Origin: Hemiscyllium ocellatum | Taxonomy: Eukaryota | Direction: 5' to 3' | NCBI RefSeq assembly: GCF_020745735.1 | Contig: NW_026869102.1 | Coordinates: 128,367 to 192,366, forward strand | DNA: 64,000 nt | In this document: positions 31,990 to 49,745 of the stretch, in pieces | Numbering within the stretch: position 1 is the first letter of the stretch | Layout: every line of letters begins with the position of its first letter | Notes under the pieces: generated by a model | Told to the model about the DNA's origin: nothing | Databases searched by the model: none | Seen by the model: the letters and a program-made list of their open reading frames with translations, nothing else | Program-made: the position numbers and the translations under genes

Positions 31990-32160
31990 GATCAGAGTGG
32001 TGCTGGAAAAGCACAGCAGGTCAGGCAGCATCCGAAAAGCAGGAGCATCCACGTTTTGGGCAAAAGCCCTTCGTCAGGAATGGCCCGAAACGTTGATTTT
32101 CCTGCTCCTCGGATGCTGCCTGACCTGCTGTGCTTTTCCAGCACCACTCTAATCTGAAGA
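31990..32160. mobile_element. Foldback (MITE-like) copy of the SINE core: ~65-bp arms in inverted orientation separated by a ~20-bp loop (GTGGTGCTGGAAAAGCACAGCAGGTCAGGCAGCATCCG...//...CGGATGCTGCCTGACCTGCTGTGCTTTTCCAGCACCAC).
   Basis: Right arm is the reverse complement of the left arm, including a perfect 33-bp core. Confidence 0.8.
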
Positions 32161-32429
32161 TGTTACCTGATGGGGTGACGCAATGTCTGGAAATGAACCT
32201 TCCACCTCCGTGAGCGAACCTCTGTCCATAACCTCAACCTGAGTTACAAATCTTCTCCAAACTCGCGAATGGGATTCCTCGTTAGTGGGGGAGATTAAGG
32301 GGCTGAGAGAATGCTTGGCTGAGCCTCTAATGCGACCCAGACAAAACCTGCAGTGGTTTGGGAAAGAATTATACCTAACAAACCTACCAGAGTCTTTTGT
32401 CTGAGGGCATAGCAAGTAGGTAAGGGACA

Positions 32430-33060
32430 ATCGGTCCCTGGTGAGACCACACTTGGAATATTGTGTCCAGTTCTGGTCGCCCTACTATAGGAAAGATACA
32501 GGGGCTTTGGAGAGGATGCAAAGGAGGTTTACCAGGATGCTGCCTGGACTGGAGGGCTTGCCTAATGAAGAAAGGTTGAATAAGCTTGGAGTTTTCTTCC
32601 TGGAGAGAAGGAGGAAGAGAGGGAGACCTGATCGAGGTTTACAAGGGAGTGAGAGGAATAGATAGTCAATAGCCAGAGCCTTTTCCCCAGGGCAGGATTG
32701 ACTGGGACGGGGGGTCATAGTTTTGAAGGTATATAGGAGACGTCAGAGGTAGGTTCTATATGCAGAGAGTTGCGTGCGTGGAATGTATTACCACGGCTGG
32801 AAGCAGAGTCACTGGGGACACTGAAGTGACTGCTGGACATGCAGATGGAGAGCAGGGAGATGAGGGACAGACCAGAAACTGAGTGGGAATAACTGCGGAT
32901 TCACACACGCGCCCAAGGTGACCTGGTGGGGTACTGCAGGGATCGGTGCCAGCATCCTGGCTATTGACAACATTTGGGAGTGACCCAGCTGTGAGAAGGC
33001 TCGACTTGCCAGAGAGAGGGGATGCATCAGATGTTGACCCAGGGGAGGGCAGGGTTAACC
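32430..33060 (+). mobile_element. CR1-like LINE 3' fragment (ORF2 C-terminus [58 protein letters not shown]...), degenerate.
   Basis: Conserved [10 protein letters not shown]...VQRRFTRM...[21 protein letters not shown] block typical of the CR1/L2 clade ORF2 C-terminus. Confidence 0.7.
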
Positions 33061-33364
33061 CCTGAGGTTAGATGGTTCGACTGGCCATGTATCGATCACA
33101 CGTTTCGAGTGATGCGATGGGGAAACTGATCGAAGTGAGTAAAGTCCCAACAGGATGCAGCGAGGATATTTTCCCCTCGAACCAGGGGAAGAAGTCTTGG
33201 GATACAGAATACATCATTCAGGAACACCCACTCGGGAGGGTGGCTGAAGGCTGTGGAGAAAGAGACGCTGAATACTGTCAAGACAAAAAGAAATGTTCAA
33301 ATTTTCAAGGCATCAGGGGTTGGGGGGGAAATAAATATAAAAACATTAAAGCATTGAGATGTGA

Positions 33365-34255
33365 TCTGTGACCAGTGGAGTGCCACAAGGATCGGTGCTG
33401 GGCCCTCTACTTTTCATCATTTATATAAATGACTTGGATGTGAACTTAGAGATAATTAGTAAGTTTGCAGATGACACCAGAATTGGAGGTGTAGGGGACA
33501 GCGAAGAGGGTTACCTCAGATCACAACAGGATCTGGACCAGATGGGCCAAGGAATGGCAGATGGAGTTTATTTTAGATAAATGCGAGGTGTTGCATTTTG
33601 GAAAGGCAGATCAGGGTGGGATTTATCCACTTAATGGTAAGGTCCTAGGGAGTGTTGCTGAACACAGAGACCTTGGAGTGCAGGTTCATAGCTCCTTGAA
33701 AGTGGAGTCTCAGGTAGATAGGATAATGAAGGCGTTTGTAATGCTTTCCTTTATTGGTCAGAGTATTGAGTGGAGGTCATGTTGCGGCTGTACAGGACAT
33801 TGGTTAGGCCACTGTTGGAATATTGTGTGCAATTCTGGTCTCCTCCCTGTCAGAAAGACATTGTGAAATTTGAAAGGGTTCAGAAAAGATTTACAAGGAT
33901 GTTCCCAGGATTGGAGGATCTGAGCTGCAGGGAGAGGCTGAACAGGCTGGGGCTGTTTTCCCTGGAGCGTCGGAGGCTGAGGGGTGACCTTATAGAGGGT
34001 TACAAAATCATGAGGGACGTGGATAGGTCTTTGGGATGGGTGAGTCCAGAACTAGAGGGGCATAGGTCTAAGGTGGGAGGGTAAAGGGACCCAAGGGGCA
34101 ACAGTTTCACCCAGAGGGTGGTACGTGTGTGGAACGAGTTGCCAGAGGAAGTGGAGGAGGCTGGATTTAAAAGGCATCTGGATGGGTATATGAATAGGAA
34201 AGGTTTAGAGTGCCACGTGCTGGTGAATGAGACCGGATTAATTTAGGATATCCTT
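33365..34255 (+). mobile_element. 5'-truncated CR1-like LINE (reverse-transcriptase domains through the ORF2 C-terminus and tail), 100-1000 bp upstream of CDIPT exon 2.
   Basis: Frameshifted across ORFs 33368, 33561 and 33770. Contains [22 protein letters not shown]...[11 protein letters not shown]...KCEVLHFGK...[10 protein letters not shown]...RFTRMFPGLE...LGLFSLERRRLRGDLIEGYKIM...FTQRVVRVWNELPEEVEEAGFKRHLDGYMNRKGLE. Confidence 0.85.
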
Positions 34256-34345
34256 CTGACTCTGTCTCTGTCTCTGTGTCTCTCTGGTTGTCTCTGACGC
34301 TCACACACACGCTGTGTGTGTCTCTCTCTCTCTCTCTGTGTGTTG
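34256..34345 (+). repeat. Pyrimidine microsatellite (CTGTCTCT / TCTC)n at the LINE 3' end, running directly into the exon-2 acceptor TGTGTTGTAG.
   Basis: Direct reading; contiguous with the LINE tail and the splice acceptor. Confidence 0.85.
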
Positions 34346-34348
34346 TAG

Positions 34349-34483
34349 GTTACAGCCGCATCATCCTGGCCCTGATTGCATTTTACTTCATGCCGAGTGA
34401 CCCAGTGTTGGCCACTTGTTTGTACCTGCTCAGCTCCTTCCTGGATTCACTGGACGGACATGCTGCCCGGTTGCTGAACCAAT
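34349..34483 (+). CDS. CDIPT: CDIPT exon 2 (-YSRIILALIAFYFMPSDPVLATCLYLLSSFLDSLDGHAARLLNQ-); acceptor TTGTAG at 34343-34348, donor GTAAGA at 34484.
   Basis: Aligns to human YARIVFAIISFYFMPCCPLTASSFYLLSGLLDAFDGHAARALNQ. The DG..AR start of the CDP-alcohol phosphotransferase motif is present; phases are consistent. Confidence 0.9.
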
Positions 34484-34765
34484 GTAAGACTTTCAGAGCG
34501 ATGTTTCAGAGTGGGGCTGGGGGGGGGGGCACGTGGGGCAACATTTGGTTTAGACCCGCTCCCTGTGTCATGTGTCCCTGAGTGCAGTGAAAAGTTGTGT
34601 TTTCTGAGCAGTACAGGCAGACCATGACAAACAAGGAGATACAGAGGAGCTAGGCGTTCAGCGTACACTGCGCAGGAGATGTGCAGAACAAGATGAGCTT
34701 TGAAATTAGAGCGATCCGTTCAGCAGTTTGATAACAGCAGGGGAAGGAGCTGTTCTTGAACCTGC

Positions 34766-34768
<3 letters not shown>

Positions 34769-34807
<39 letters not shown>
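34769..34807. repeat. (TG)19 microsatellite in CDIPT intron 2.
   Basis: Direct reading. Confidence 0.95.
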
Positions 34808-34809
<2 letters not shown>

Positions 34810-35267
34810 AAGCTTCTGTATCCTCTCCCTGGTGGAACTGTTTGGAAGAGAGGGGTGGGAGATGTCTTTGAGGACACTGTCTGCCTTCCCGTGGAAGTGG
34901 AGTCTGTGGTTAGCTCATGTGATGGTCTGAGCTGTGCTCACCACCTTCTGTAATTTCTCACGGTCCTGGGGCAGATCCGTCGCTGTCCCAGACTGTGATA
35001 CATCCGGACAGCGGGTTTTCCGTGGTGCCTCTGTGGAAAGCTGGTGAGGATCTTGGTGGACGTGCGGGATTTGCTGAGCCTCCTGAGGTGTTATTGTGCC
35101 GTCTTCAGCATCACATCTACGTGGGGAGACGAGGACGGGTGCCGGAGGGAGACCAGGGGGCTGAGGCCCTTTAGATGCAAGCTAATTGCTGCTGTTTTAG
35201 TGTGTTGTTCTCTCTCTCTCCCACTCCCACTCCCACTCCCACTTTTCCACCCCCCATCTCTGCACAG

Positions 35268-35421
35268 GCAGCAAGTTTGGAATGATGTTGGATATGTTGA
35301 CTGACCGATGTGCCACCATGTGTTTGCTGGTGAATCTCTCCCTCCTGTACCCTCGTTACGTCTTCCTATTTCAGCTCAGTATGATCCTGGACATCAGCAG
35401 TCACTGGTTACACTTACACAG
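35268..35421 (+). CDS. CDIPT: CDIPT exon 3 (CSKFGMMLDMLTDRCATMCLLVNLSLLYPRYVFLFQLSMILDISSHWLHLH-); acceptor CACAG at 35267, donor GTCAGT at 35422.
   Basis: Aligns to human GTRFGAMLDMLTDRCSTMCLLVNLALLYPGATLFFQISMSLDVASHWLHLH. Completes motif G...D...D; reading frame verified codon by codon. Confidence 0.9.
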
Positions 35422-35544
35422 GTCAGTGACATTGAACCGAATCCCTACACACCTCCCTGGACACCAGCTCCGACCCCTCCCGGCACGGCATGGGTCCCCT
35501 GGATATCGTCTCTCCCCTTGGGGTATGGGTCCCACAAAATACCA

Positions 35545-35720
35545 GCCCTGCTCCCCACGGGAAACAGGCCAAAGACACCACCTGGGGAGCGGTTTGAGGG
35601 GAGGACCAGGGGAAACAGGCCAAAGACACCACCTGGGGAGCGGTTTGAGGGGAGGACCAGGGGAAACAGGCCAAAGACACAACCTGGGGAGTGGTTTGAG
35701 GGGAGGACCAGGGGAAACAG
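35545..35720. repeat. 51-bp tandem repeat x3 (GAAACAGGCCAAAGACACCACCTGGGGAGCGGTTTGAGGGGAGGACCAGGG), ~120 bp into CDIPT intron 3.
   Basis: Unit starts at 35561, 35612 and 35663. Confidence 0.9.
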
Positions 35721-35789
35721 GCAGAGAATGGAGCCCGAGGGGAAGACCATGGAGATGCAGCACAAGAATGGGGCCTGGGGGTCGGTTCC

Positions 35790-36700
35790 TGGAGTGGACC
35801 AGGAGGAAAACAGGCCGAGAGTGGGGCCTGAGGGGAGAGGACCGGGGGAGGAACAGGCCGAGAGTGGGGCCTGAGGGGAGAGGACCGGGGGAGGAACAGG
35901 CTGAGAGTGGGGCCTGAGGGGAGAGGACCGGGGGGGGGGGCGGGGGAGAGAACAGGCCGAGAGTGGGGCCTGAGGGGAGAGGACCGGGGGAGGAACAGGC
36001 CGAGAGTGGGGCCTGAGGGGAGAGGACCGGGGGAGGAACAGGCCGAGAGTGGGGCCTGAGGGGAGAGGACCGGGGGAGGAACAGGCCGAGAGTGGGGCCT
36101 GAGGGGAGAGGACCGGGGGAGGAACAGGCCGAGAGTGGGGCCTGAGGGGAGAGGACCGGGGGAGGAACAGGCCGAGAGTGGGACCTGAGGGGAGAGGACC
36201 GGGGGAGGAACAGGCCGAGAGTGGGGCCTGAGGGGAGAGGACCGGGGGGGGGGGCGGGGGAGAGAACAGGCCGAGAGTGGGGCCTGAGGGGAGAGGACCG
36301 GGGGGGGGGCGGGGGAGAGAACAGGCCGAGAGTGGGGCCTGAGGGGAGAGGACCGGGGGGAGAACAGGCCGAGAGTGGGGCCTGAGGGGAGAGGACCGGG
36401 GGGAGAACAGGCCGAGAGTGGGGCCTGAGGGGAGAACAGGCCGAGAGTGGGGCCTGAGGGGAGAGGACCGGGGGGGGGGGGCGGGGGAGAGAACAGGCCG
36501 AGAGTGGGGCCTGAGGGGAGAGGACCGGGGGGGGGCGGGGGAGAGAACAGGCCGAGAGTGGGGCCTGAGGGGAGAGGACCGGGGAGAGAACAGGCCGAGA
36601 GTGGGGCCTGAGGGGAGAGGACCGGGGGGAGAACAGGCCGAGAGTGGGGCCTGAGGGGAGAACAGGCTGAGAGTGGGGCCTGAGGGGTCAGGTTGAGCGG
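35790..36700. repeat. GC-rich 43-bp minisatellite (GAACAGGCCGAGAGTGGGGCCTGAGGGGAGAGGACCGGGGGAG), ~18 copies. Some copies are expanded by G10-G11 runs (GGGGGGGGGGGCGGGGGAGA).
   Basis: Direct reading: period 43 between 35821 and 35864, with longer units where poly-G is inserted. The minus-strand proline-rich 469-aa ORF is an artefact. Confidence 0.9.
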
Positions 36701-36740
36701 AGGACCCTTGCTAATCCCAGTTTCCTGGTCTCCTCTCCAG

Positions 36741-36822
36741 CACCATGATGACGGGGAGCAGCAGCCATAAGAAGATTGACCTGAGTGGAAATCCCATCCT
36801 CCGTGTTTACTACACCAATGTG
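36741..36822 (+). CDS. CDIPT: CDIPT exon 4 (STMMTGSSSHKKIDLSGNPILRVYYTNV); acceptor CTCCAG, donor GTAAGG at 36823.
   Basis: Aligns to human SSVVRGSESHKMIDLSGNPVLRIYYTS; phase 2 in, phase 0 out. Confidence 0.85.
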
Positions 36823-37214
36823 GTAAGGTCACTGTCTGTCAGCGAGGGGGTGGGCTGTGGGGGGGAGAGCCACCTTCTCACACCACAATAAATAGGAGCA
36901 GGAATAGACCATTCGGCCCCTCGAGCACCCTGTTGTGCCTGATCCGACATTCCTCGTGTCCGTGGTCCTGCCCTTTCTGCCTCTAGCCCTTTGTTCCCGA
37001 CTGGTCAGGAATCTCTCTATCTCAGCCAGAAACGTACACGAGGACTCTGACACACACGCACACGCGCGCACACACGCGAAGAAATTCCTCCCCATCTCAG
37101 TCCAACATTGGAGCCTCTCTGTCCTGAGGCTGTTCCCTCTGGTCATACCGACTCCCGTGAGAGGAGAAATGTTTCAATGAGATCCCCTCTCACTCCTCCA
37201 AACCCAGGGAGCAG

Positions 37215-37450
37215 GGTCCCACACCGTTAACTGTGTGAAGTTTAAGGGGGATACCGAGGGTGGTGGGTGTCTGGAACGTGTTACCGACAGAAGTAGGCAC
37301 AGTAGATTCATTTAAGGTAGATCTGGACAGATGCGTGAGTAGGTGGGAGCAGAGGGACACAGATCCTTAGGAATTGGGTTTAGACGGTGAATTCGGATCG
37401 ACTCCGGTTGGAGGGCCGAAGGGCCTGTTCCTGGGCTGTAGGTTTTTCTT
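37215..37450 (+). mobile_element. CR1-like LINE 3' end fragment (ORF2 C-terminus ...FKGDTEGGGCLERVTDRSRHSRFI... plus tail ...GGAGGGCCGAAGGGCCTGTTCCTGGGCTGTAGG).
   Basis: Homology to the tail family seen at 28205, 38830 and 41410. Confidence 0.55.
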
Positions 37451-37599
37451 TGTACTTTGCCCATTAAAACAGTCCCTCCATCCTGGGGGCTAATCCTAGT
37501 GAACCCTGTCTAGGCTGCTTCCCGTGAAATGTTATCTCCCCTCGAGTAAGGAGGGGAACCCAAACTGCTCGCGGTACTCCAGGTCTCACCAGCACCTGG

Positions 37600-37760
37600 G
37601 AGAAAGTGAAGACTGCAGATGCTGGAGGGCAGAGACGGGAGTGGGCGGTGCTGGAAAAGCGCAGCAGGTCAGGCAGCATCTGGGCAGCAGGAGAGGTGGC
37701 ACTTCATCCCCAAACCCTTCCTCAGCTGCTGCCTGACCTGCTGTGCTTTTCCAGCACTTT
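37600..37760. mobile_element. Foldback SINE-core hairpin (GTGCTGGAAAAGCGCAGCAGGTCAGGCAGCATCTG...CAGCTGCTGCCTGACCTGCTGTGCTTTTCCAGCAC) in CDIPT intron 4.
   Basis: Inverted arms read directly. Confidence 0.8.
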
Positions 37761-37849
37761 GTCCCCTTGCCAACCTAATCTGTGTGGAGTTTGCACATTC
37801 TCCCCGCGTCTGCGTGGGTTTCCTCCATAACCCTCCGCTTCCTCCCACA

Positions 37850-38190
37850 CTCCAAAGATGTACAGGTTAGGGTGGGATTGGCTGTGGGGAAATTGTCCCG
37901 TAGTGCCCTGGGATGTGCAGGTTAGGGTGGGATCGGCCATGGGGAAATTGTCCCGTAGTGCCCAGGGATGTACAGGTTAGGGTGGGATTGGCCGTGGGGA
38001 AATTGTCCCGTAGTGCCCTGGGATGTGCAGGTTAGGGTGGGATTGGTCGTGGGGAAATTGTCCCGTAGTGCCCAGGGATGTGCAGGTTAGGGTGGGATTG
38101 GCCGTGGGGAAATTGTCCCGTAGTGCCCAGGGATGTACAGGTTAGGGTGGGATTGGCCGTGGGGAAATTGTCCCCTGGTGCCCAGGGATG
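37850..38190. repeat. 55-bp tandem repeat x6 (TGCAGGTTAGGGTGGGATTGGCCGTGGGGAAATTGTCCCGTAGTGCCCAGGGATG).
   Basis: Unit starts at 37861 and 37916 and continues. Resembles an internally expanded retroelement 3' tail; followed by a tail terminus ...GGGCGAAGGGCCTCTTTCCACGCTGTAGGGAATCTGA at 38190-38330. Confidence 0.85.
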
Positions 38191-38469
38191 TGCGGGTCAG
38201 GTGCGTTAGTCAGGGGGTAAACGTGGGAATGGGTCTAGGCGGGATACTCTTCGGAGGGTAAGTGTGGACTTGTTGGGGCGAAGGGCCTCTTTCCACGCTG
38301 TAGGGAATCTGACTTCACCCCCTCAGTCTGTCACTTCCCTCTGTAATCTGCAGCGTTCCTGTCTGGTCTCACCCATCCTTTACCCCTTCCCCACCATCCC
38401 AGTAACCTGAGCACATCCCAAACACTGCAGCCTCCTGCCCCTTTCTCCCCCTTTCCTGTTACTGACTTC

Positions 38470-38640
38470 AGAATGAAAGTCTCTGTCTCTCTCTCTCTGT
38501 CTCTCTCTCTCTCTGTCTCTCTCTCTCTCTGTCTCTCTCTCTCTCTGTCTCTCTCTCTCTCTGTCTCTCTCTCTCTCTGTCTCTCTCTCTCTCTGTCTCT
38601 CTCTCTCTCTGTCTCCCCCTGTTTCTCTTGTGTTGTGAAA
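38470..38640. repeat. (GTCTCTCTCTCT)n pyrimidine-rich 12-bp simple repeat, ~12 copies.
   Basis: Direct reading. Confidence 0.95.
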
Positions 38641-39075
38641 CTTTTTCCGACGATGTCGGAGGGTTTGAGCTCGGAGGAGAGGCTGAGGCTGTTTTCCATG
38701 GGGTTTCGGAGACTGAGGGGTGACGAGGGGCATGGATAGGGTGAATAGAGAAGGTCTTTTCCCCCTGCGATGGGGGAGTCCTGAACTAGAGGAATATAGG
38801 TTTAAGATAAGAGGGGGAAAGATATAAAAGGGACCTAAGGGGTAACTTTTTCACCCAGAGGGTTGTACGTGTATGGAATGAGCTGCCAGAGGGAGTGGTG
38901 GAGGCTGGTACGACTGCAACATTTAAGGGGCGTTTGGGTGGGTATAGGAATAGGAAGGGTTTGGTGGGATAGAGGCCGGGTGCTGGCAGGTGGGAATGGA
39001 TTGGGTTGGGATAACTGGGTCAGCACGGACAGGTTGGACCGAAGGGTCTGTTTCCGTGCTGTACATCTCTATGAA
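38640..39075 (+). mobile_element. CR1-like LINE 3' fragment (..ERLRLFSMGFRRLRGD.. then GNFFTQRVVRVWNELPEGVVEAGTTATFKGRLGGYRNRKGL, then full 3' tail).
   Basis: Translation plus tail identity with 28205-28400. Confidence 0.75.
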
Positions 39076-39149
39076 TGTGTGACAGGGACAGCACGGGGTT
39101 AGATACAGAGTAAAGCTCCCTATAATGAGGGATATAGAGGGTCTCCTCC

Positions 39150-39250
39150 ATTAAACACTCATAGGCCAGATGGGTTTAGTGGGATATGGGACTAGATTAG
39201 GTTCGGATATCTGGGTCAGCATGGACGGGTTGGGCCGAAGGGTCTGTGAC
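39150..39250 (+). mobile_element. Additional LINE 3' tail fragment (GGGTTTAGTGGGATATGGGACTAGATTAGGTTCGGATATCTGGGTCAGCATGGACGGGTTGGGCCGAAGGGTCTGTGACTGTG).
   Basis: Tail homology. Confidence 0.55.
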
Positions 39251-39439
39251 TGTGAGATCCTAAAGCTGGAGAAGCAGCTGTTTAAATCCTGGGTTAAAAT
39301 GTAGACATAGGATTCAGAGTAGGCTATTCTGGTCTTGCTGTGATATTCCGTTTGATCACGGCCTATCCTTTATCCTGTTGTTACATGGAGATTTTTACCA
39401 GGTGTCTGATATTTTCCCTGTGTTTCTGTTCTTCCTCAG

Positions 39440-39521
39440 AAAGTCCTATTTGTGATGTGTGCCGGTAATGAGCTCTTTTACGCGATGCTTTACCTCTTGA
39501 GTTTCATGGAGGGTCCTGTAG
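39440..39521 (+). CDS. CDIPT: CDIPT exon 5 (KVLFVMCAGNELFYAMLYLLSFMEGPV-); acceptor CCTCAG, donor GTAGGT at 39522.
   Basis: Aligns to human ALFTLCAGNELFYCLLYLFHFSEGPLV. Confidence 0.85.
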
Positions 39522-39669
39522 GTAGGTATTCACTTCCTGAGCAGCGATGGAACCCAAGTCGTCTGTGTTGCGCGTCTGTGTTGCGCGTGTGCGATTGGCT
39601 TGAAGCAGGTCTGGAATCTGAAACCACTCTGCTTCCCCACCCCACCCCATCCCCTTTTGTGGGGTCCTG

Positions 39670-40262
39670 GGGAAATGTCTGAACAAAGAGACCTTGGAGT
39701 GCAAGTTCATAGCTCCTTGAAAGTAGATAGGATAGTGAAGGCGTTTGTAATGCTTTTCTTTATTGGTCAGATATTGAGTACAGGAGTTGGGAGGGTCATG
39801 TTGCGGCTGTACAAGACATTGGTTAGGCCACTGTTGGAATATTGCGTGCATTTCTGGTGTCCCTCCTATCGGAAAGATGTTGTGAAACTTGAAAAGGTTC
39901 AGAAAAGATTTACAAGGATGTTGCCAGGGTTGGAGGGTGTGAGCTATAGGGATTGGCTGAACAGGCTGGGGCTGTTTTCCCTGGAGCGTCGGAGGCTGAG
40001 GGGTGACCTTATAGAGGTTTACAAAATTATGAGGGGGATGGATAGGGGAAATAGGCAAAGTCTGTTCCCTAGGGTCAGGGAGCCCAGAACTAGCGGGGCA
40101 TAGGTCCCTTTTATATCTTTCCCCTCTCACCCTAAACCTAAGGGGTAACTTTTTCACCCAGAGGGTGGTACGTGTATGGAATGAGCTGCCAGAGGAAGTG
40201 GTGGAGGCTGGTACGACTGCAACATTTTAAGGGGGGTTTGGATGGGTATAGGAATAGGAAAG
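39670..40262 (+). mobile_element. CR1-like LINE 3' portion immediately downstream of CDIPT exon 5 (RDLGVQVHSSLKV...[73 protein letters not shown]...FSPRGWYVYGMSCQRKWWRLV...).
   Basis: ORF 39600..40103 plus tail. Confidence 0.85.
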
Positions 40263-41410
40263 GTTTGTAGTGTACATGGATTTTAGTAAGGCATTTGATA
40301 AGGTTCCCCATGGTAGGCTTATGCGGAAAGTCAGGAGGCATGGGATAGTGGGAAATTTGGCCAATTGGATAGAAAACTGGCTAACCGGTCGAAGTCAGAG
40401 AGTGGTGGTAGATGGTAAATATTCAGCCTGGAGCCCAGTTACAAGTGGAGTTCCGCAGGGATCAGTTCTGGGTCCTCTGCTGTTTGTAATTTTTATTAAT
40501 GACTTGGATGAGGGAGTCGAAGGGTGGGTCAGTAAATTTGCAGATGATACGAAGATTGGTGGAGTTGTGGATAGTGAGGAGGGCTGTTGTCAGCTGCAAA
40601 GGGACTTAGATATGATGCAGAGCTGGGCTGAGGAGTGGCAGATGGAGTTCAACCCTGCCAAGTGTGAGGTTGTCCATTTTGGAAGAACAAATAAGAATGC
40701 GGAATACAGGGTTAACGGTGGGTTCTTAGTCAGGTGGAGGAACAGAGGGATCTTGGGGTCTATGTACATAGATCTTTGAAAGTTGCCACTCAGGTGGATA
40801 GAGCTTGTAAGAAGGCCTATGGTGTATTAGCGTTCATTAGCAGAGGGATTGAATTCAAGAGTCGTGAAGTGATGTTGCAGCTGTACAGGACTTTGGTTAG
40901 GCCACATTTGGAGTACTGTGTGCAGTTCTGGTTGCCTCACTTTAGGAGAGATGTGGAAGCTTTGGAGAGGGTGCAGAGAAGATTTACCAGGATGTTGCCT
41001 GGAATGGAGAATAGGTCATACGAGGATAGGTTGAGAGTTCTCGGCCTTTTCTTGTTGGAACGGCGAAGGATGAGGAGTGACTTGATAGAGGTTTATAAGA
41101 TGATCAGAGGAATAGATAGAGTTGACAGTCAGAAACTTTTTCCCCGGGTACAACAGAGTGTTACAAGGGGACATAAATTTAAGGTGAAGGGTGGAAGGTA
41201 TAGGGGAGATGTCAGGGGTGGGTTCTTTACCCAGAGAGTGGTGGGGGCATGGAATGCGCTGCCCGTGGCAGTGGTAGAGTCAGAATCATTGACTACCTTT
41301 AAGCGGCAATTGGATAGGTACATGGATGGGTGCTTAATCTAGGATAGATGTTCGGCACAACATCGTGGGCCGAAGGGCCTGTTCTGTGCTGTATTGTTCT
41401 ATGTTCTATG
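40263..41410 (+). mobile_element. 5'-truncated CR1-like LINE with a nearly complete RT domain (FSKAFDKVPH...[22 protein letters not shown]...SKFADDTKIGG...KCEVVHFGR...[72 protein letters not shown]...FFTQRVVGAWNALP...FKRQLDRYMDG). Ends in (TTCTATG)2.
   Basis: ORFs 40270..40779 and 40734..41342 (one frameshift). Inserted head-to-tail directly after the previous LINE fragment. Confidence 0.9.
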
Positions 41411-41590
41411 TTTGGAGGGATAGAGGCCAGGTGCTGGCAGGTGGGAATGGATTGGGTTGGGATAACTGGGTCAGCACGGACAGGTTGGACCGAAGGGTCT
41501 GTTTCCGTGCTGTACATCTCTATGACTTGATGGGACGAATGGCCTGTGCGTGAGAGACCAGCAGGCAATGCAATGGGCTGAACAGCCACA
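41410..41590 (+). mobile_element. LINE 3' tail fragment plus downstream tail-associated sequence (…CTCTATGACTTGATGGGACGAATGGCCTGTGCGTGAGAGACCAGCAGGCAATGCAATGGGCTGAACAGCC).
   Basis: Identity with 28270-28440. Confidence 0.7.
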
Positions 41591-42889
41591 GCACCCCACT
41601 CTCTGAGCTCCTCACCGACCTGGTGAATATATCGGCCATTCCTTCCTGGGTCAGAATCCCAGGATTCCCTCCCTCCCTTGGGGTCTACCCACAACAAGGG
41701 GACTGCAGTGGTTCGATGGGGCAGCTCAGACCCACCTTCTCAGGGGGGCAACTAGGGATGGGGGGCAACTAGGGACGGGGCGATAAATACTGCACCCAGT
41801 ATTTATTCATTTATTTTAAATGATTCTGGTTCAGTCCCTGAACCACTAAACCCTGCAAGACCACAGGCTGGGATGGGTGGCTAGTTTATTCAGGCAATCC
41901 AGAGCCAATGGGCTGAGTGGCCTCTCTCCGCTGTCTCGCTGGGGGTAACAGCCCAAGAATTGAACCGCACTGATCCTAGTGTCCTCACGGCTGTGAGGGT
42001 TTTGTAAATAGTCCCCGATATACCTGACTTTCCGAGACAGACTGCCAGGAAAACACACATCCGGACTCTGTGTTCTGAACAGGAAATTTCAATTCGTTGC
42101 AAATAATTAATTTGCCCATCGCTGAATCCTATCTTCACCCATCGGAAGTTAAAGCTCTTTTTAACCCCCGATAAAATTCCTGCTCCACAATCCTATGACC
42201 ATACAACAGAAACGTTGGTGTCATGGACAGAGGGAAGACCGGGAGGGAAGCTCAATAGGACCTGACCAATGAGATTCACTGAAATAACTGTCAGGAACTC
42301 CTGCTGCACCGTCCCCTTCCTTCAGAACGTCTTCTCACTTCCCTCCAGGGTGTGGAGGTGTCGGCGTTGGACGGGGGTGGACAAAGTTTAAAAATCACAC
42401 AACACCAGGTTATAATCCAACAGGTTTATTTGGAAGCACTAGCTTTCGGATCGCTGCTCCTTCATCAGGTGGTTGTGAAGGTATAAGATTGTAAGACACA
42501 GAATTTATAGCAACAGTTTACAGTGTGCAGTAGCTGAAATTATACCCTGAAAAAGACCTGGATTGTTTTAGTCTCCCATCATTTCAAATGACCATGTTGG
42601 TTTCAGTTCTTTCATATGTAAATGCCAGAGCTTTTTAAAAAAAAAATCTACATTCTCAAGTGAACTTGTAACAGTTGGTGTCATGTCGGCCCAGAGAATG
42701 TATTGAAGGTGTGAGCTTCCCTGTGTGAGGCTGTCTGTACCACAACGGTCAGACTGATTCTAATCGATAAAAATGGATTTTCAGAATTTTACATGGATTC
42801 ATGCAGTTTTTGAGCAAAGTAAAATGTAATTCTGTAAGTACAAATTCACCCGTGTGTGTGAGTGTGTGTGTGTGAAGGAGGTGGCACAG

Positions 42890-43880
42890 TGTGACTGGTT
42901 CACAACTTGTGAAGTCTCTCATTTATTGGATGAAAGCAACCAGATACAGTAATGGACAGGGGGTGGGGTGGGACAAACGGGTTTATTTTCCAGCAGAATT
43001 TCCCCCCCACCGCAGAAATGGTTTCTTCCCTTGGCTTCTGGATGTCCTTTTCACTCCCAGTTACCTGGGAATTAATCTCATGGTGATCGGAAGGCAGATG
43101 GAACTTTATCCTTTGTTGCTAAAGGGGATTATGGAGTTTAAAAGTGGGGAGGTTATGTTGCAGCCCTACAACATCCTGGTAAGGGCACACCTGGAATACT
43201 GCGTGCACTTTTGATCTCCAGAATTAAAAATGGATGTACTTGGAGTGGAGTGGAGTGGATGCAGAGGAGGTTCACTGAGTTGATTCCTGGAGTTGGAGAC
43301 AGTGAGGTTGGCAGACGTTGGAGATCAGTGTTGTGTGTATTGCTGGAAAAGCACAGCAGGTCAGGGAGCATCCTTTCCTGATGAAGGGTCGTGTCTGAAA
43401 CGTTGGCTCTGATGCTCCTCGGATGCTGCCTGACCTGCTGTGCTTTTCCAGCAAGACACTCTCGACTCTGATTCCAGAGTTGGCTGAGTAGACTGGGATT
43501 ACATTCATTTGAGTTTAGAATGAGGGGACCTTTATAGAAACATATGAAATGATGAAGGGAATCGAGAAGATAAGAAGCAGGGAGGTTATTTCCACTGGAG
43601 GGTGAAACTAGAACTAGGGGCGTAGCCTCCAAATAAGGGGGAGCAGAGTTCGGACTGAGCGGAGGAGGAACCCAGAGGGTTATGAGGTGGTGGGATTCCC
43701 TGGCCAGTGAAGAGCTACAGGGAGAGGCTGGGGCTGTTTTCCCTGGAACATCGGGGGCTGAGGCATGACCTTATAGAGGTTTATAAAATCATGAGGGGGC
43801 ATGGATAGGGTTAATGGCAGCCCTTTTTCCCCTGGGTGGGGGGGGATTTGAAGTCTAGGGGAGCAGTCTTAAGGTGAGAG
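42890..43880 (+). mobile_element. Old, degenerate CR1-like LINE 3' fragment (..EVMLQPYNILVRAHLEYCVHF.. then, beyond the inserted foldback, ..ETYEMMKGIEKIRSREV.. and ..GLFSLEHRGLRHDLIEVYKIMRGHG..). Interrupted by the foldback element at 43300-43465.
   Basis: Weak but recognisable ORF2 C-terminal motifs in translation. Confidence 0.5.
43300..43465. mobile_element. Foldback SINE-core hairpin (TTGCTGGAAAAGCACAGCAGGTCAGGGAGCATCC...GGATGCTGCCTGACCTGCTGTGCTTTTCCAGCAA), inserted into a degenerate LINE in CDIPT intron 5.
   Basis: Inverted arms read directly. Confidence 0.8.
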
Positions 43881-43934
43881 GGGAGAGATTTAATAAAGAC
43901 GGGGGGGGGGGCAGCTTTGACAAAGGGTTAGTTA

Positions 43935-44040
43935 GACTCAACGTCAGCTCTTTTCTCTGACGTTGCTGCCAGACCTGCTGAGTTTTTCCAGCATTTTCTC
44001 TTTTTTTTTGGTTTCAGATTCCAGCATCTGCAGTAATTTG
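43935..44040 (-). mobile_element. Partial SINE-like copy, reverse orientation (GCTGCCAGACCTGCTGAGTTTTTCCAGCA...CAGATTCCAGCATCTGCAG).
   Basis: Similarity to the other copies; degraded. Confidence 0.5.
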
Positions 44041-44069
44041 TTTTTACCTTTTTTTTTAATGAACAGGAA

Positions 44070-44165
44070 AGGGTTTGGAGGGATACGGGTCAGGAGCTGG
44101 GGCAGGTGTGGGACTAGGGAGCAGTTTGGCCGAAAGATCTGTTTCTGTGCTGTGCGACTCTGAGA
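44070..44165 (+). mobile_element. LINE 3' tail remnant (…GGAGCAGTTTGGCCGAAAGATCTGTTTCTGTGCTGTGCGACTCTGAG) ~170 bp upstream of the last CDIPT exon.
   Basis: Tail homology. Confidence 0.5.
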
Positions 44166-44333
44166 GAGCCACAGTTCAGAGTCCAAAAAAAGGCAGAATA
44201 TTTCAAAGCTGGGGTTGTTTGATACAGTGCTGCGGGTGTCTCCTGGTTCAGGCTGGAAGGTTGGGTGTAGTTCTCGAGATGGACTCCCGGCTCTCTGCTG
44301 CTCGATTGTAATCCCGGTTCTGTCTGTCCACAG

Positions 44334-44503
44334 TACCTCTCCTGAATATAGGCCTGTTCCAACTCCTGCTGTACAGTTCCTTCCCGATCTGCCTCATCAA
44401 AACAGCCATCAGCATCGTCCACCTGATCACAGCATCTCGCAACATGGCGGCCATAGACCAAGCAGAGGGTGAGAGGGGCCTTACAACCTGTAAGCTGGAC
44501 TGA
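44334..44503 (+). CDS. CDIPT: CDIPT terminal coding exon (-VPLLNIGLFQLLLYSSFPICLIKTAISIVHLITASRNMAAIDQAEGERGLTTCKLD*); acceptor TGTCCACAG, stop TGA at 44501-44503.
   Basis: Aligns to human VGLFRMGLWVTAPIALLKSLISVIHLITAARNMAALDAADRAKKK. The last ~14 aa diverge; an alternative GTGAGA donor at 44469 could splice to a further exon. Confidence 0.75.
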
Positions 44504-44698
44504 ACGCCAACAGGAACGTGTATCTCCCCCCCCCACCACCTCACCAACCTCAACAGTGTGTCCCAGTCCAAGGAAACTATCCCAGTGCTATTCTGCACCC
44601 TCTGTGTGTCCGTGTGAGAAATGACAGGCACCTTCCCCCCTATTCCTGCTGCCAAGTGCAGCCACTTACTGAAGGAAATGTTTTACCGGAGATGTGTT

Positions 44699-44704
44699 AA
44701 TAAA
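44699..44704 (+). promoter_or_regulatory. AATAAA candidate polyadenylation signal ~195 nt after the CDIPT stop.
   Basis: Hexamer read directly (gtgttAATAAAcctgtcc); first canonical signal downstream of the stop. Confidence 0.45.
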
Positions 44705-46019: not shown

Positions 46020-46295
46020 GAGGGTTGGGACATCACTGGGTAGGCCAGCATACATTACACATCCCTAATTGCCCCCTGCCCCGGGCAGCTGAGCATCAAC
46101 TGCCTTGGTGTAGGTCTGGAGTCAGTTGGGTTCTCATGATCAATCCACAATGCTTTTGTGGTTATCGCTAGATTGACTGAATTCAGATCCCAACATTTGC
46201 TGTGGTCGGTTTCGAAACCCAGCTCCCTGGCACACAGCGTGGTTTTCCTGGATTCAGAGTTTAATGATAATGTTACTAGGCCGTAGCTTCCCCTT
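46020..46295 (+). mobile_element. Fragment of an abundant elasmobranch SINE-like interspersed repeat (GTTGGGACATCACTGGGTAGGCCAGCAT...CCCTAATTGCCC...GATTGACTGAATTCAGATCCCAACATTTGCTGTGGTCGGTTTCGAAACCCAGCTCCC).
   Basis: Recognised as a recurrent shark-genome repeat; an inverse copy lies at 49080-49450. Confidence 0.55.
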
Positions 46296-46399
46296 GCCCC
46301 TTAATTAGAAATGGCTGTTGGCTTATAGCTCAGATTAAACTGCTGCACTCAAGGGGAAAAGGTACCGGTTTTAAATCAAGGAAGGTAGAAGACAGAGGG

Positions 46400-47390
46400 T
46401 GATGGTGGAGAGTTGTTTTTCAGACTGGAGGCCTGTGACCAGTGGAGTGCCACAAGGATCGGTGCTGGGTCCACTACTTTTCGGCATTTATATAAATGAT
46501 TTGGATGTGAACGTAGGAGGTATAGTTGGATGGTGACACCATAATTGGAGGTGTAGTGGACAGTGAAGTAGGTTACCTCAGATTACAATGGGATCTTGAT
46601 CAGCTGGGCCAATGGGCTGAGGAGTGGCAGATGGAGTTTAACTTGGGTAAACGTGAGGTGCTGCATTTTGGGGAAAGCAAATCTTAGCAGGACCTGTACG
46701 CTTAATGGTAAGGTCCAAGAGTGTTGTAGAACAAAAGTGCAGGTTTATAGCTCCTTGAAAGTGGAGTCGCAGGTAGATAGGGTAGTGAAGAAGGTGTTTG
46801 GTATGCTTTGCTTTGGTCAGAGTATTGAGTACAGGAGTTGGGAGGTCATGTTGTGGCTGGACAGGACATTGGTTAGGCCACTGTTGGAATATCGTGTGCA
46901 ATTCTGGTCTCCTTCCTATTGGAAAGGGGTTGTGAAACTTGAAAGGATTCAGAAAAGATTTACAAGGATGTTCCAAGGAGAGGCTGAACAGGCTGGGGCT
47001 GTTTTCCCTGGAGCGTCAGAGGCTGAGGGGTGACCTTATAGAGGTTTATAAAATCATGAGGGGGACATGGATAGGGTTAATAGACAAGGGGTGAGGGAGT
47101 TCAGAACTAGAGGGGCAGAGGTTTAGGGTGAGAGGGGAAGGATGTAAAAGGGACCTAAGGGGTAATTTTTTCAGCCAGAGGGTGGTGTGTGTGTGGAATG
47201 AGCTGCCAGAGGAAGTGGTGGAGGATGGTACGATTCCATTTAAAAAGTACGCGGATGGGTATATGAAAAGGAAGGTTTCAGAGGGATATGGGCCAAGTGC
47301 TGGCAAATGGGACGAGATTAATTTCAGATATCGGTGTGGACGAGTTGGGCTGAAGGGTCTGTGTCCGTGCTGTGCAGCTTCTCTGACTCG
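46400..47390 (+). mobile_element. Degenerate CR1-like LINE ([22 protein letters not shown]...VQVYSSLKVESQVDRVVKKVFGMLCFGQSIEYRSWEVMLWLDRTLVRPLLEYRVQFWSPSYWKGVVKLERIQKRFTRMF... plus 3' tail to ~47390).
   Basis: ORF 46596..47033 and tail homology; multiple stops and frameshifts. Confidence 0.75.
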
Positions 47391-47989
47391 AAGTTGTATA
47401 AAAAGGTTCAAAACCATATAACTGAAGCCCCTGGCAGATTGTAGCCCCGATGTTAGTGGGTGAGAGCAGGGAGGGGGCGAGTCCAGGTACTCTGTGTGCA
47501 TGTGTGCACTCCAGCACAGTAGCTATGTGTGCGCTGGATCCTCAGCAGAGCTTACTACAGCCTAGTACAGGCAATCCAGCAGAAACCTCCTTTCCTGTGA
47601 AGGAAAGTGACCCATTTCTGCCTGGGTAGAAAAGGACACGAAAATCTCTAGCTGCTACCTCTGCTGCCTCGTGTTGTTTAGAAAGAGCCAGCAGCAACAG
47701 AAATAAAACCATTCATTGCCGTCTGTGATCAGAACTGGTGCTATTGAACTGTGCTTCTCTTTTATTTCCCCAATCCCTTTACAGTATTCACGTGGTCTTT
47801 GTTCATGTGCGACTCTGTGGAAATGTTGTGAATGGGGGTAGAGTTCAAGTCACACAGTTATAGATCAGTAAAGTCCACTTATTTACTTCTCACCTTAAGC
47901 TGCAAGGTTATTTCCAATAAATAATGGTTTTTGTCAATGATGAGAAAAGCTCGTGTGTGTGTTCTTTCGGTAGCATTGGGACTTTCCAT

Positions 47990-48135
47990 GAGTTTCATCA
48001 AATGCTTCTTTGTAACTACTCTGGGAATAGAGTGGATTCCCTACAGTGTGGAAACAGGCCCTTTGGCCCAACAAGTCCACACTGACCCTCCGAAGAGTGA
48101 CCCACCTAGACCCATTTCCCTCTGACTAATGCACC
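47990..48135. mobile_element. Fragment of another interspersed repeat (CTACAGTGTGGAAACAGGCCCTTTGGCCCAACAAGTCCACACTGACCCTCCGAAGAGTGACCCACCTAGACCCATTTCCCTCTGACTAATGCACCTAACACTATGAGCAATTTAGCACAGCC).
   Basis: Recognised as a recurrent shark-genome repeat family; orientation not assigned. Confidence 0.5.
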
Positions 48136-48229
48136 TAACACTATGAGCAATTTAGCACAGCCCATGCCCCCACTCCCCCGTGAGAAACCACAAAGTCTTT
48201 TATCTGTAGCAACGTGAATACAGCCTTAG

Positions 48230-49070
48230 CTGACTGCTGGGGCGAAGGAGGCAGGGAGGCTGCAGAGGCAGGTTCGGAGACTGGGCAAAGAGTACAATGT
48301 GGGGAAGTGCGAGGGTCATGGACTTTGGGAAGAGGGATAGAGGTAAGGATATTTTCCAAACTTGGAGAAAGCACAGAAATCTGGAGTGCCAAGGGACCTG
48401 GGAGTTCTAGTCCAGGATTCTCTCAAAGTAAAGGTGCAGGTTGGGTCAGTCATTAGGAAGGCAAACACAACGATGGCATGAATTGAGAGAATACCAGGAT
48501 ATAAAAGCAGGGATGTACCTCTCAGGCTCCTTCAGGCTCTGGTCAGACCACGTTTGGAGTATTGTGTGCACGGTTTTGGGCCCAGTATCCCAGGAAGGAT
48601 GTACTGGCCCCTGGAGCGTTCACCGGAATGGTCCCAGGAACCTAAGGTTTAACGCGTGAGGAACGTTTGAGGACTCTGGGCCTGTACTCGATGGAGTTGA
48701 GAGGGATGAGGGGGGGACTTACAAAATACCGACCGGCCTGGACAGAGTGGGTGTCGGGGAGATGTTCCCATTGGGAGGAGAGACTGGGACTCACGGGCAC
48801 AGCCTGAGAGTAAAGGGAAGAGCCTTTAGAACAGAGAGAAGGAGGAACCTCTCCAGCCAGGGAGTAGGGAATCTGTGGAAGTCACTGCGACCAGGAAGCT
48901 GTGGGGGCTAGGACATTCCGTCCGTGTAAGATGGAGATAGACAGCTTCTTGTGGATCGAGGGTTACCGGGAGACAGCGGGAGAATGGGCTGGAGAAAGTT
49001 AATAACTATGATTGGATGGCAGAGCAGACAGGATGGGTTGAATGGCCTCATTTCTGCTCCTGGTGGTCTT
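48230..49070 (+). mobile_element. Degenerate CR1-like LINE 3' half (..KCEVMDFGKRDRGKD...RLWSDHVWSIVCTVLGP...LRFNA*GTFEDSGPVLDGVERDEG...FRTERRRNLSSQGVGNLWKSL...), with tail.
   Basis: ORFs 48214 and 48441 plus downstream frames; a diverged family member. Confidence 0.6.
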
Positions 49071-49079
49071 TTCAGAAGT

Positions 49080-49450
49080 GACGGTCAGTGGATATTTTTT
49101 GAGGCTGGAGAGAGGTTTCTCACCAAGTTCCTCAGAGGGGGAAGGGTCAGTATCAGGAACTCGCTATGCCCGATTCTTTTTAAATTCATTCATTCACGGG
49201 ATGAGGGTGTCGCTGGCTGAGGCGGTGTCTATTCCCCATCCCGAACTGCCCAGAGGAGGGTTAAAAATCAGCCACGTAGATGTGGGTCTGGAGTCACTTG
49301 TAGGCCGGGCCAGGTAAGGACGACAGTTCCCTTCCCTCAGTGACCAGGTGGGGGGTTTATTTTTGACAGTGGATTCATGGTCACCATTAGACTCCTCATT
49401 TCCTGATTTTTAAAAATTATTTGCTTTTATTGAATTTAAATTCTACCGTT
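49080..49450 (-). mobile_element. Inverse copy of the SINE-like repeat seen at 46020-46295 (…AAATTCAATAAAAGCAAATAATTTTTAAAAATCAGGAAATGAGGAGTCTAATGGTGACCATGAATCCACTGTCAAAAATAAACCCCCCACCTGGTCACTGAGG on the minus strand).
   Basis: Reverse-complement similarity to 46020-46295 and to the typical terminal region of this repeat. Confidence 0.5.
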
Positions 49451-49584
49451 ACCTGGGTTACCCAGGCAGTGCGACCAGGACATCACCTCCCGAGCTGGAC
49501 TCTGGAGAAGGGCGCTGAGGGAGCTTTGGAGTTAGGATGAGGAGGAGGGACATGGGATGGTCATTCGGACAGACACAGAGTGCG

Positions 49585-49745
49585 CAGGAAAGTCAGGGGT
49601 AGTGCTGGAAAAGCACAGCAAGTCAGGAGTGAAGGGCTTTTGCCCGGAATGTCGACTTTCCTGCTCCTCGGATGCTGCCTGACCTGCTGTGTTTTTCCAG
49701 CACCTCTCTAATCTCCAGCGTCTGCGGGACCCACTGCGGCCAGGG
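49585..49745. mobile_element. Foldback SINE-core hairpin (GTGCTGGAAAAGCACAGCAAGTCAGGAGTGAAGGGCTTTTGCCCGGAATGTCGACTTTCCTGCTCCTCGGATGCTGCCTGACCTGCTGTGTTTTTCCAGCAC) downstream of the gene.
   Basis: Inverted arms read directly. Confidence 0.75.

Follow-up and report, generated by a model that had tools for sequence, protein, structure and literature searches.

The foldback sequences in and beside the CDIPT gene of Hemiscyllium ocellatum are, with a probability of about 72%, relics of retrotransposition by the machinery of Penelope-like elements (PLEs): head-to-head double copies of a short PLE-type 3′ end that bears a minimal hammerhead motif. The repeat unit, here termed V, is probably a short, non-autonomous PLE-type template, and the foldbacks are most likely a known by-product of PLE insertion rather than a novel MITE or a microRNA gene. 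All inferences about V draw on 11 arms from the window, the 64,000-nt stretch of contig NW_026869102.1 that was analysed.

Unit V is about 134 nt long. A 31-nt, highly conserved core (V55–85) was matched seven times at no more than one mismatch, against an expectation of 0 from 100 shuffles; together with more degenerate copies this gives the 11 arms, spread over some 23 kb of non-satellite DNA, and agrees with a sequence-only reading of the same DNA that had counted at least eight cores. The 5′ end is discrete and lies directly at the hammerhead motif (V1–42, cut site after V37), and the 3′ end lies at one of two positions, about V106 (short) or V134 (long), separated by 28 nt. Eight of the 11 arms form four abutting inverted pairs (hairpins H1–H4) and two more a tail-to-tail pair (Table 1), matching the five places at which inverted arms had been described; every strong inverted repeat in 21 kb is V-related. 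CDIPT exons lie on the plus strand at about 30003–44476. H1, H2, H3 and the separated pair are intronic and H4 lies downstream, which upholds the earlier placement of three hairpins in CDIPT introns; the "transcript-sense" context ascribed to them is meaningless for a palindrome.

Table 1. Positions of V copies, hairpins and associated hammerhead modules in the window
Feature	Position	Strand	Description
Separated pair	31247–31378/31641–31770		Distant inverted pair
Left pair copy	31247–31380	+	Full-length V1–134, long 3′ end; minimal hammerhead 31256–31283
Spacer	31381–31640	.	Between tail-to-tail copies, about 260–266 bp; no second copy in the window
Right pair copy	31641–31770	−	Full-length V1–134, 5-nt core deletion; minimal hammerhead 31734–31761 (−)
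Composite palindrome	31906–32231		326 bp, contains H1
X′, left outer arm of the H1 composite palindrome	31904–31988	−	Second, different minimal hammerhead 31950–31983 (−)
H1 inverted pair	31989–32061/32083–32155		73 nt, 90% complementary, gap 21 nt; predicted RNA fold −133 kcal/mol, z −21
H1 left arm	31989–32082	−	V5–106, short 3′ end, running on into X′
H1 right arm	32083–32153	+	V26–106
X′, right outer arm	32154–32233	+	Decayed hammerhead 32154–32187 (GAAA mutated to GCAA)
H2 inverted pair	37648–37682/37723–37757		35 nt, 94% complementary, gap 40 nt; predicted RNA fold z −6.4
H2 left arm	37599–37725	−	V10–134, long 3′ end with 28-nt tail; hammerhead region decayed
H2 right arm	37726–37781	+	About V44/52 to about V106, short 3′ end without tail, abutting Deu-type SINE (presumed)
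W	42440–42468	−	Third, unrelated minimal hammerhead, in a single-copy repeat of a different family
H3 inverted pair	43335–43373/43421–43459		39 nt, 95% complementary, gap 47 nt; predicted RNA fold z −7.5
H3 left arm	43295–43373	−	V54–134, long 3′ end with tail
H3 right arm	43374–43477	+	V1 to about V111, short 3′ end; hammerhead boxes present, helix II weakened
Solitary V fragment	43940–44033	+	Diverged, V32–120, about 68% identity
H4 inverted pair	49602–49627/49678–49703		26 nt, 92% complementary, gap 50 nt; predicted RNA fold z −5.2
H4 left arm	49588–49627	−	V62 to about V90–96 only; outer end uncertain
H4 right arm	49630–49740	+	V14–134, long 3′ end with tail

All four hairpins are predicted to fold far more stably than dinucleotide shuffles (z from −5 to −24 overall), which bears out the earlier view of them as repeated, transposon-derived foldbacks able to form long stem-loops; their loops span 21–50 nt, not the 15–25 bp given before. 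Because the hammerhead motif is directional, the polarity of the hairpins is fixed: the hammerhead strand is directed outward in all of them, with the 5′ ends meeting centrally and the 3′ ends outermost. The inner arm ends are variable and all different (V1, 5, 10, 14, 26, about 44, 54 and 62), and the outer ends lie mostly at about V106 or V134. The short arm of H4 is the exception, ending nearer V90–96, and its want of a clear canonical 3′ end counts against a PLE origin. H2, H3 and H4 each have the 28-nt tail (V107–134) on a single arm; H1 lacks it altogether, and in the separated pair both copies carry it. At all four hairpin loci the arms abut with zero spacer, at junctions that are all different. 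Private variants common to the arms of one locus are consistent with a single event per locus: the H1 arms (0.91 identical) both carry a 9-nt deletion (V88–96) and the same V/X′ junction, and the right copy of the separated pair has private variants in common with the left, to which it is 86% identical, compared with 71–78% for arms at other loci, the short H4 arm excepted (83% over 35 columns).

On the opposite strand, V begins with what is, judged by its sequence, a complete minimal hammerhead ribozyme motif of the metazoan PLE variant, in the order CUGAUGA, one bulged nucleotide, a G…C helix II, GAAA, palindromic CG and UC. The descriptor used (CUGANGA, one bulged nucleotide, a G10.1…C11.1 helix II of at least 3 bp, GAAA, 15.2/16.2 pairing, U16.1 and H17) comprises the features diagnostic of metazoan PLE hammerheads (Cervera & de la Pena 2014, PMC4209133). 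Applied strictly, it gave four matches in the 34 kb from 30 to 64 kb and none in 300 dinucleotide shuffles. These intact motifs fall in three unrelated repeats, V (both copies of the separated pair), X′ (left arm) and W; other copies are point-mutated. They read CUGAUGA-A-GGGC-UCUG-GCCC-GAAA-UG-UC in the left pair copy, CUGAAGA-G-GUUACC-UAGUAC-GGUGAC-GAAA-CG-UC in X′ and CUGAUGA-A-GGA-GCAGCGA-UCC-GAAA-GC-UA in W. Helix II covaries (GGGC/GCCC in V, GUUACC/GGUGAC in X′, GGA/UCC in W and GCC/GGC in anole PAc), with G10.1–C11.1 in all three repeats and a nucleotide bulged between A9 and 10.1 that is A in V and W and G in X′. Positions 15.2–16.2 are CG in V and X′ and GC in W, within the palindromes ACGU (the right pair copy and consensus of V, and X′) and AGCU (W), a symmetry that would let two motifs dimerise; the left pair copy has AUGU, a wobble, at this site. 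There is no helix III, and helix I is short (GAAU/AUUC, 4 bp, in V; paired at 5/6 positions in X′ and in W). Rfam hammerhead models, which include the helix III absent from the minimal variant, gave no match at E ≤ 1 over 30–52 kb or at E ≤ 10 on 31230–31400; this result was expected because the motif lacks helix III, and is still counted as a failed test. The sequence-only reading was right about the foldbacks and missed the hammerhead on their opposite strand, and with it their polarity and the link to PLEs.

Turning to how such loci could form, we propose that each insertion would have placed two oppositely oriented cDNA copies, 5′-truncated at different points and joined head-to-head via short microhomology; the product would be an inverted repeat with the truncated 5′ ends central, the element 3′ termini outermost and the 28-nt tail usually one-sided. 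The two copies may result from a PLE GIY-YIG endonuclease/RT cleaving and extending both target strands, or alternatively from self-priming, and the two V 3′ ends may correspond to a pair of neighbouring internal positions at which RT starts. In vitro, the protein of the anole element PAc cuts both strands and extends them, and its reverse transcription begins at two adjacent internal sites, the tail being the sequence between them; these starts lie 85–92 nt past the hammerhead cut in PAc, against 69 and 97 nt for the 3′ ends of V.

The combination of 5′ truncation, an adjacent inverted copy and a one-sided tail is the published signature of PLE insertion. PLEs have an adjacent inverted 5′-truncated copy, head-to-head being the commonest arrangement, and one of their inverted pLTRs may end 3′ in a tail of 30–40 bp or 31 bp (PMC3846280; PMC8557442). 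The V loci share with the inverted pLTRs of endonuclease-containing PLEs (Penelope, Poseidon and Neptune; Arkhipova et al. 2013, PMC3846280; Craig et al. 2021, PMC8557442) the heavy 5′ truncation, the head-to-head inverted 5′-truncated copy, an inverted junction with a short overlap or microhomology, an optional tail of about 30 nt at one 3′ end and a hammerhead motif near the repeat 3′ end. TSDs of PLE insertions vary in length and are frequent without being universal. Pairs of PLE hammerhead motifs 100–700 bp apart on opposite strands have been reported (PMC4209133), and the motifs of the separated pair, at 31256 (+) and 31761 (−), match them. Helix II is 4 bp in V and 6 bp in X′, compared with 6–8 bp in flatworm and fly PLE hammerheads, and published PLE minimal hammerheads cleave weakly (PMC4209133). 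Each transcript strand of a V locus carries a single sense copy, which makes a dimer in cis impossible there. Unlike PLE pLTRs, the V repeats neither enclose nor adjoin an ORF, and the unit is only about 134 nt, with a 28-nt tail; its discrete 5′ end at the hammerhead, set against a typical pLTR of several hundred bp, counts against a PLE origin. Among the 10 longest ORFs of 30–64 kb, none yielded an RT or GIY-YIG domain; the non-satellite DNA of the window amounts to only about 23 kb. Homology to a described PLE was not demonstrated in a comparison that covered one reference sequence, anole PAc: V, X′ and W gave local z values of 0.9–2.2 against the PAc pLTR-ORF RNA, 14–68 of 300 shuffles scoring as well, and beyond the catalytic boxes the likeness was not significant (z about 2; 14–20 of 300 shuffles equal).

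Two further retroelement systems bear comparison. Animal non-LTR retrozymes, which consist of hammerhead repeats in tandem, have been proposed as non-autonomous derivatives of PLEs, and both PLEs and hammerhead repeats are reported in Chondrichthyes (PMC7229834; bioRxiv 10.64898/2026.07.22.740005). V resembles retrozymes as a short, non-coding, hammerhead-bearing, presumably PLE-dependent unit with dispersed monomers in this same class, and the H1 arms carry two different hammerhead modules, V then X′, in direct order about 112 nt apart. Direct tandem arrays and circular RNA intermediates, however, are the defining traits of retrozymes, which reportedly are depleted from introns, whereas V copies are inverted and mostly intronic, with no junction at the ribozyme cut site. 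In L1 5′ inversion (twin priming), as proposed here, two primings per event yield an inverted segment and a microhomology junction, but what is inverted is another segment, from farther upstream in the element, and no hairpin results; in V both arms represent the same 3′-terminal segment.

Among other explanations, a MITE-like or foldback DNA transposon, as the sequence-only reading had suggested, would require a master hairpin with long TIRs, spread by transposase, whose centres were later altered by deletion at the unstable palindrome. Near-perfect inverted arms and small size fit this, as does one nearly full-length arm per hairpin, as if central deletions had trimmed a perfect 2 × 134-nt palindrome, and V hairpins share with MITEs and Drosophila FB foldbacks their small, non-coding, long-hairpin form. 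Those elements, however, have equivalent termini and fixed TSDs and amplify as a hairpin unit, whereas the outer termini in H2, H3 and H4 are 28 nt apart, each locus has its own inner junction, and the loci fall into different subfamilies, with private variants common to the arms. Single units of full length also occur in the opposite, tail-to-tail arrangement, and the unit contains a polar RNA motif, with the variable end always its 5′ end. Nor was a convincing TSD found. H3 interrupts a 3′ fragment of LINE ORF2, its rejoined flanks aligning in a single frame with further copies elsewhere in the window, as expected from the earlier description of 43300–43465 as inserted into an older LINE; they offer a candidate TSD (AGTTGG), but against other LINE copies a target deletion of about 18 bp fits better, and no TSD was seen at the other hairpin loci, nor any of fixed length. 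We therefore regard such a transposon as quite unlikely. Host-generated inverted duplication of single V insertions, by replication template switching or palindrome formation independent of the element's own mechanism, is very unlikely: the H1 palindrome does run past V into X′, with one junction in both arms, but X′ bears its own hammerhead module and the simplest view is that it belonged to the inserted template, and the 4–5 loci are always centred in V, on the unit's 5′ side, with no other repeat family so affected in 21 kb.

That the hairpins are functional small-RNA genes, miRNA or hairpin-RNA precursors kept by selection in CDIPT introns, we judge highly improbable despite their very stable stems of 26–73 bp inside a transcribed gene and a weak Rfam similarity to miRNA precursor models. 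The Rfam matches fall 25–125 bits under the gathering score (best 45.7 bits against a threshold of 70), occur on both strands and involve many unrelated plant and animal families, indicating generic hairpin similarity and no membership of a microRNA family, contrary to the miRNA-like structures first envisaged; arm mismatches of 5–10% (21% in the outer X′ arms of H1) are uncompensated, and stem lengths and loops differ from locus to locus. Least probable, and extremely so, are pairs of independent SINE insertions in chance opposite orientation. Repeats are dense here (11 arms in the non-satellite sequence), but eight arms abut without spacer at four loci, which excludes independent insertions there, and private indels and junctions are common to the arms of a locus; the 266-bp-spaced pair alone may represent two insertion events. 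No tRNA, 5S or 7SL head was found, ARAGORN reported 0 tRNA-like sequences and Rfam no pol III-type match, and an HE1-, Deu- or tRNA-type SINE core in V is not supported; the sequence from about 37781 onward, which we take to be a Deu-type SINE, is a separate element adjoining H2.

With a PLE origin preferred, the "MITE/miRNA-like hairpin" label is replaced by a specific, testable one. The hairpins are probably neutral intronic relics, and annotation of the CDIPT locus should treat them as intronic repeats without evidence of function in CDIPT. A broader extension, which we consider unlikely, is that V is a discrete, hammerhead-headed non-autonomous retroposon of about 134 nt for which a foldback is the preferred form of insertion by PLE machinery, seeding the genes of cartilaginous fish with long intronic hairpins that feed small-RNA or RNA-editing pathways; the 31-nt core would then be the minimal PLE RT recognition signal, and the V and X′ hammerheads could pair through ACGU as a heterodimeric ribozyme. 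Scars of PLE insertion will go on turning up in raw hairpin scans of the genomes of fish and sharks. In these loci the PLE signature can be seen in compact natural form, with two alternative 3′ ends, arms joined head-to-head and a tail on one side; its mechanism was reconstituted in vitro only recently. A unit so short, comprising the hammerhead, the conserved core and the RT start site, would be well suited as a minimal template for studies of PLE RT recognition.

The 31-nt core was matched seven times with ≤1 mismatch in the window, against none in 100 dinucleotide shuffles, and sensitive searches with the unit consensus yielded a total of 11 arms of the repeated unit V between 31.2 and 49.8 kb. 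An inverted-repeat scan covering 30–51 kb returned four abutting pairs (hairpins H1–H4) and one separated pair; V is involved in all inverted repeats in this interval, bar two weak ones with complementarities of 73% and 80%. Folded as RNA, the hairpin loci were far stabler than dinucleotide shuffles (z −5 to −21; −24 for the extended H1 palindrome). The recurrent hairpins described in the sequence-only reading are thereby borne out. H1, H2, H3 and the pair are intronic, since CDIPT exons span ~30003–44476 (+); H4 lies downstream. Exact-pattern scans of metagenome and viral contigs gave no further V copies, a protein-space probe with the open frame across V gave no matches, and no paper was found on the core sequence itself.

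Positions in the window of V hairpins, hammerhead W and neighbouring repeats, with arm end-points in V coordinates
Feature	Position	Strand	V end-points (arm 1; arm 2)	Details
Separated V pair	31247-31378 / 31641-31770		1-134; 1-134	
H1	31989-32061 / 32083-32155		5-106; 26-106	arms 73 nt, 90% complementary, gap 21 nt
H2	37648-37682 / 37723-37757		10-134; ~44/52 to ~106	arms 35 nt, 94% complementary, gap 40 nt
H3	43335-43373 / 43421-43459		54-134; 1 to ~111	arms 39 nt, 95% complementary, gap 47 nt
H4	49602-49627 / 49678-49703		62 to ~90-96; 14-134	arms 26 nt, 92% complementary, gap 50 nt
Core V55-85, example	32052-32022	-		
Core V55-85, example	32112-32142			
W hammerhead	42440-42468	-		CUGAUGA-A-GGA-GCAGCGA-UCC-GAAA-GC-UA, intact third minimal hammerhead
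W repeat	42330-42560	-		single copy
37-bp minisatellite	1-20454			two variants
16-bp minisatellite	21331-27838			CAGAGGGGCAGACACA
23- and 38-bp minisatellites	up to 29634			
GC-rich 43-bp + 51-bp tandem repeats	35555-36687			higher-order copies up to 98% identical
Presumed Deu-type SINE fragment	37781-38201			CTGTGTGGAGTTTGCACATTCTCCCC...
55-bp array in its 3' part	37857-38201			6.3 copies
LINE ORF2 fragments	32438, 33772, 39772, 40848, 43100-43700, 46820, 48482			RFTRMLPG...LGLFSLE
31-bp array	50002-51149			38 copies
74-bp array	51523-52210			9 copies
51-bp satellite	53011-64000			AAGGGTCACTCACTGTGTAACCGTACAGAGTCAGTGTTTATACAGCAGGGT, ~200 copies

Satellites fill 1–29.6 kb and 53–64 kb, and all V loci therefore lie within ~23 kb of ordinary sequence. 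The upstream block, which directly precedes the putative first exon of CDIPT, comprises ~30 kb of G-rich, strongly strand-asymmetric minisatellites (GC skew up to +0.89), whose GGGG runs suggest G-quadruplex potential; the downstream satellite includes 86-bp and 73-bp higher-order variants and continues past the window end. The GC-rich tandem repeats occupy the CDIPT intron between exons 35267–35431 and 36766–36819 and give rise to a spurious 469-aa ORF, and the two arrays downstream of H4 are the source of minus-strand 500-aa 'ORFs'. Adjoining the right arm of H2 is a fragment that we take, on the Deu consensus, to be a Deu-type SINE. At least seven fragments of the ORF2 C-terminal region of one LINE family, which looks CR1/L2-like to us, are scattered in CDIPT introns and downstream, and one of them encloses H3.

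The V unit (~134 nt) was defined by aligning all arms and is read on the strand opposite to the core as originally described: TCCTCATTC-CTGATGA-A-GGGC-TTTT-GCCC-GAAA-CG-TC | GATTTTCC...GGATGCTGCCTGACCTGCTGTGCTTTTCCAGC...CTCTGATC-TCCAGCATCTGCAGACCTCACTTTCTCC. In every hairpin the variable arm ends are central, and the outer ends fall mostly at ~V106 or V134, the exception being the short arm of H4; the 28-nt extension V107–134 is present in a single arm only in H2, H3 and H4. In the pair the orientation is reversed: its copies stand tail-to-tail, with a unique ~266-bp spacer between them, and both begin exactly at V1. Six arms end within V1–14 and none reaches beyond, which argues for a genuine 5′ end of the template at this point. 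Conservation across arms is 96% in the core V55–85, compared with 70–89% elsewhere in V; CpG content is not the cause, because V86–134 likewise lacks CpG. The core holds a 5-bp stem-loop (GUGCU-UUUCC-AGCAC) and might be what the mobilising reverse transcriptase recognises. The pair arms share private variants (identity 0.86, versus 0.71–0.78 to arms at other loci), with an identity of 0.83 to the short H4 arm over 35 shared columns.

V1–42 can be read as a type I hammerhead that lacks helix III. A descriptor specifying the boxes CUGANGA and GAAA, 0–1 bulged nucleotide, a helix II of ≥3 bp that opens with G and closes with C, pairing at 15.2/16.2, U16.1 and any nucleotide but G at position 17 gave four matches in 30–64 kb, against none in 300 dinucleotide shuffles: two full V copies, the outer-arm module of H1 (X′), and W. 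The sequence of helix II is wholly different among V (GGGC/GCCC), X′ (GUUACC/GGUGAC), W (GGA/UCC) and PAc, the anole Poseidon Penelope-like element (PLE; GCC/GGC), yet it is paired in each; positions 15.2–16.2 are GC in W and CG in the other three. In V, X′ and W alike, one nucleotide is bulged after A9 and helix I has 4–6 bp. The genuineness of metazoan PLE minimal hammerheads has been argued from the same features, including G10.1–C11.1, a palindromic 15.2–16.2 and a short helix I, and opposite-strand motif pairs 100–700 bp apart have been mentioned for them (Cervera & de la Pena, PMC4209133), a spacing that the V pair motifs at 31256(+) and 31761(−) fit. The W repeat is unrelated to V in sequence, does not form part of a foldback here, and probably represents a further family of PLEs or retrozymes. 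Rfam hammerhead models (run over 30–52 kb and on one V unit) detected none of V, X′ and W, which we attribute to the absent helix III but still count as a failed test.

Both arms of H1 pass from V(...106) directly into X′ through an identical junction and share a private 9-nt deletion; the 326-bp H1 palindrome therefore derives from one template, on which two distinct hammerhead modules followed each other in the same orientation, ~112 nt apart. Such a composite is similar to a dimeric form of retrozyme-like units, which is again consistent with a repeat that bears a hammerhead and depends on PLEs.

The hammerhead sets the sense strand independently of repeat geometry, so that the hairpins are head-to-head, 5′-truncated copies with their 3′ ends outward, an arrangement given in the PLE literature (PMC3846280; PMC8557442). 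In anole PAc, reverse transcription begins at two adjacent internal sites, 85–92 nt past the hammerhead cut, with the sequence in between forming the tail, and the main template is unprocessed RNA (PMC11167929). For V, the distances from the cut to its two 3′ ends are 69 and 97 nt. None of the inner junctions falls at the cut site V37/38, in agreement with an unprocessed main template; a ribozyme-processed template is unsupported for the same reason. We propose, as the best-supported explanation (probability about 0.7), that the hairpins are Penelope-type insertion scars that would have been left by a short hammerhead-bearing unit.

Other origins account less well for these features. Two independent insertions in opposite orientation, the case named in advance as fatal to the foldback reading, cannot explain four abutments with zero spacer, and host-driven inverted duplication leaves unaccounted for both the restriction to the V family and the constantly 5′-sided centre of V. 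L1-style twin priming was dropped, as the two arms are the identical segment. The sequence-only reading was right that these are transposon-derived foldbacks and wrong as to their class: unequal termini, junctions unique to each locus, a polar V motif and the lack of any established target-site duplication (TSD) at the V hairpin loci all speak against a MITE or foldback DNA transposon. The insertion of H3 into a LINE was confirmed, with the joined flanks aligning in frame with other LINE copies. A 15-bp TSD candidate there (TGATTCC..GAGTTGG) was dropped, part of it being better read as the V arm itself; the joined flanks are also ~18 nt short relative to other LINE copies, which is another point against it and suggests a small target deletion. 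The alternative miRNA-like interpretation, taken as miRNA-family membership, fails Rfam thresholds: the same Rfam searches gave only sub-threshold, generic miRNA-like matches, on both strands and to many unrelated families. ARAGORN found no tRNA-like head.

Pfam searches of the 10 longest ORFs in 30–64 kb returned no reverse transcriptase or GIY-YIG domain, only spurious sub-threshold matches from satellite-derived ORFs. Beyond the catalytic boxes, the similarity of V, X′ and W to anole Poseidon RNA, the one PLE sequence compared, was not significant; a striking match upstream of the W hammerhead (ATACC-TCACAACC-TCTGAGGA) failed a shuffle test. Read as Penelope-type scars, the V hairpins would represent a novel instance of an already known insertion type.
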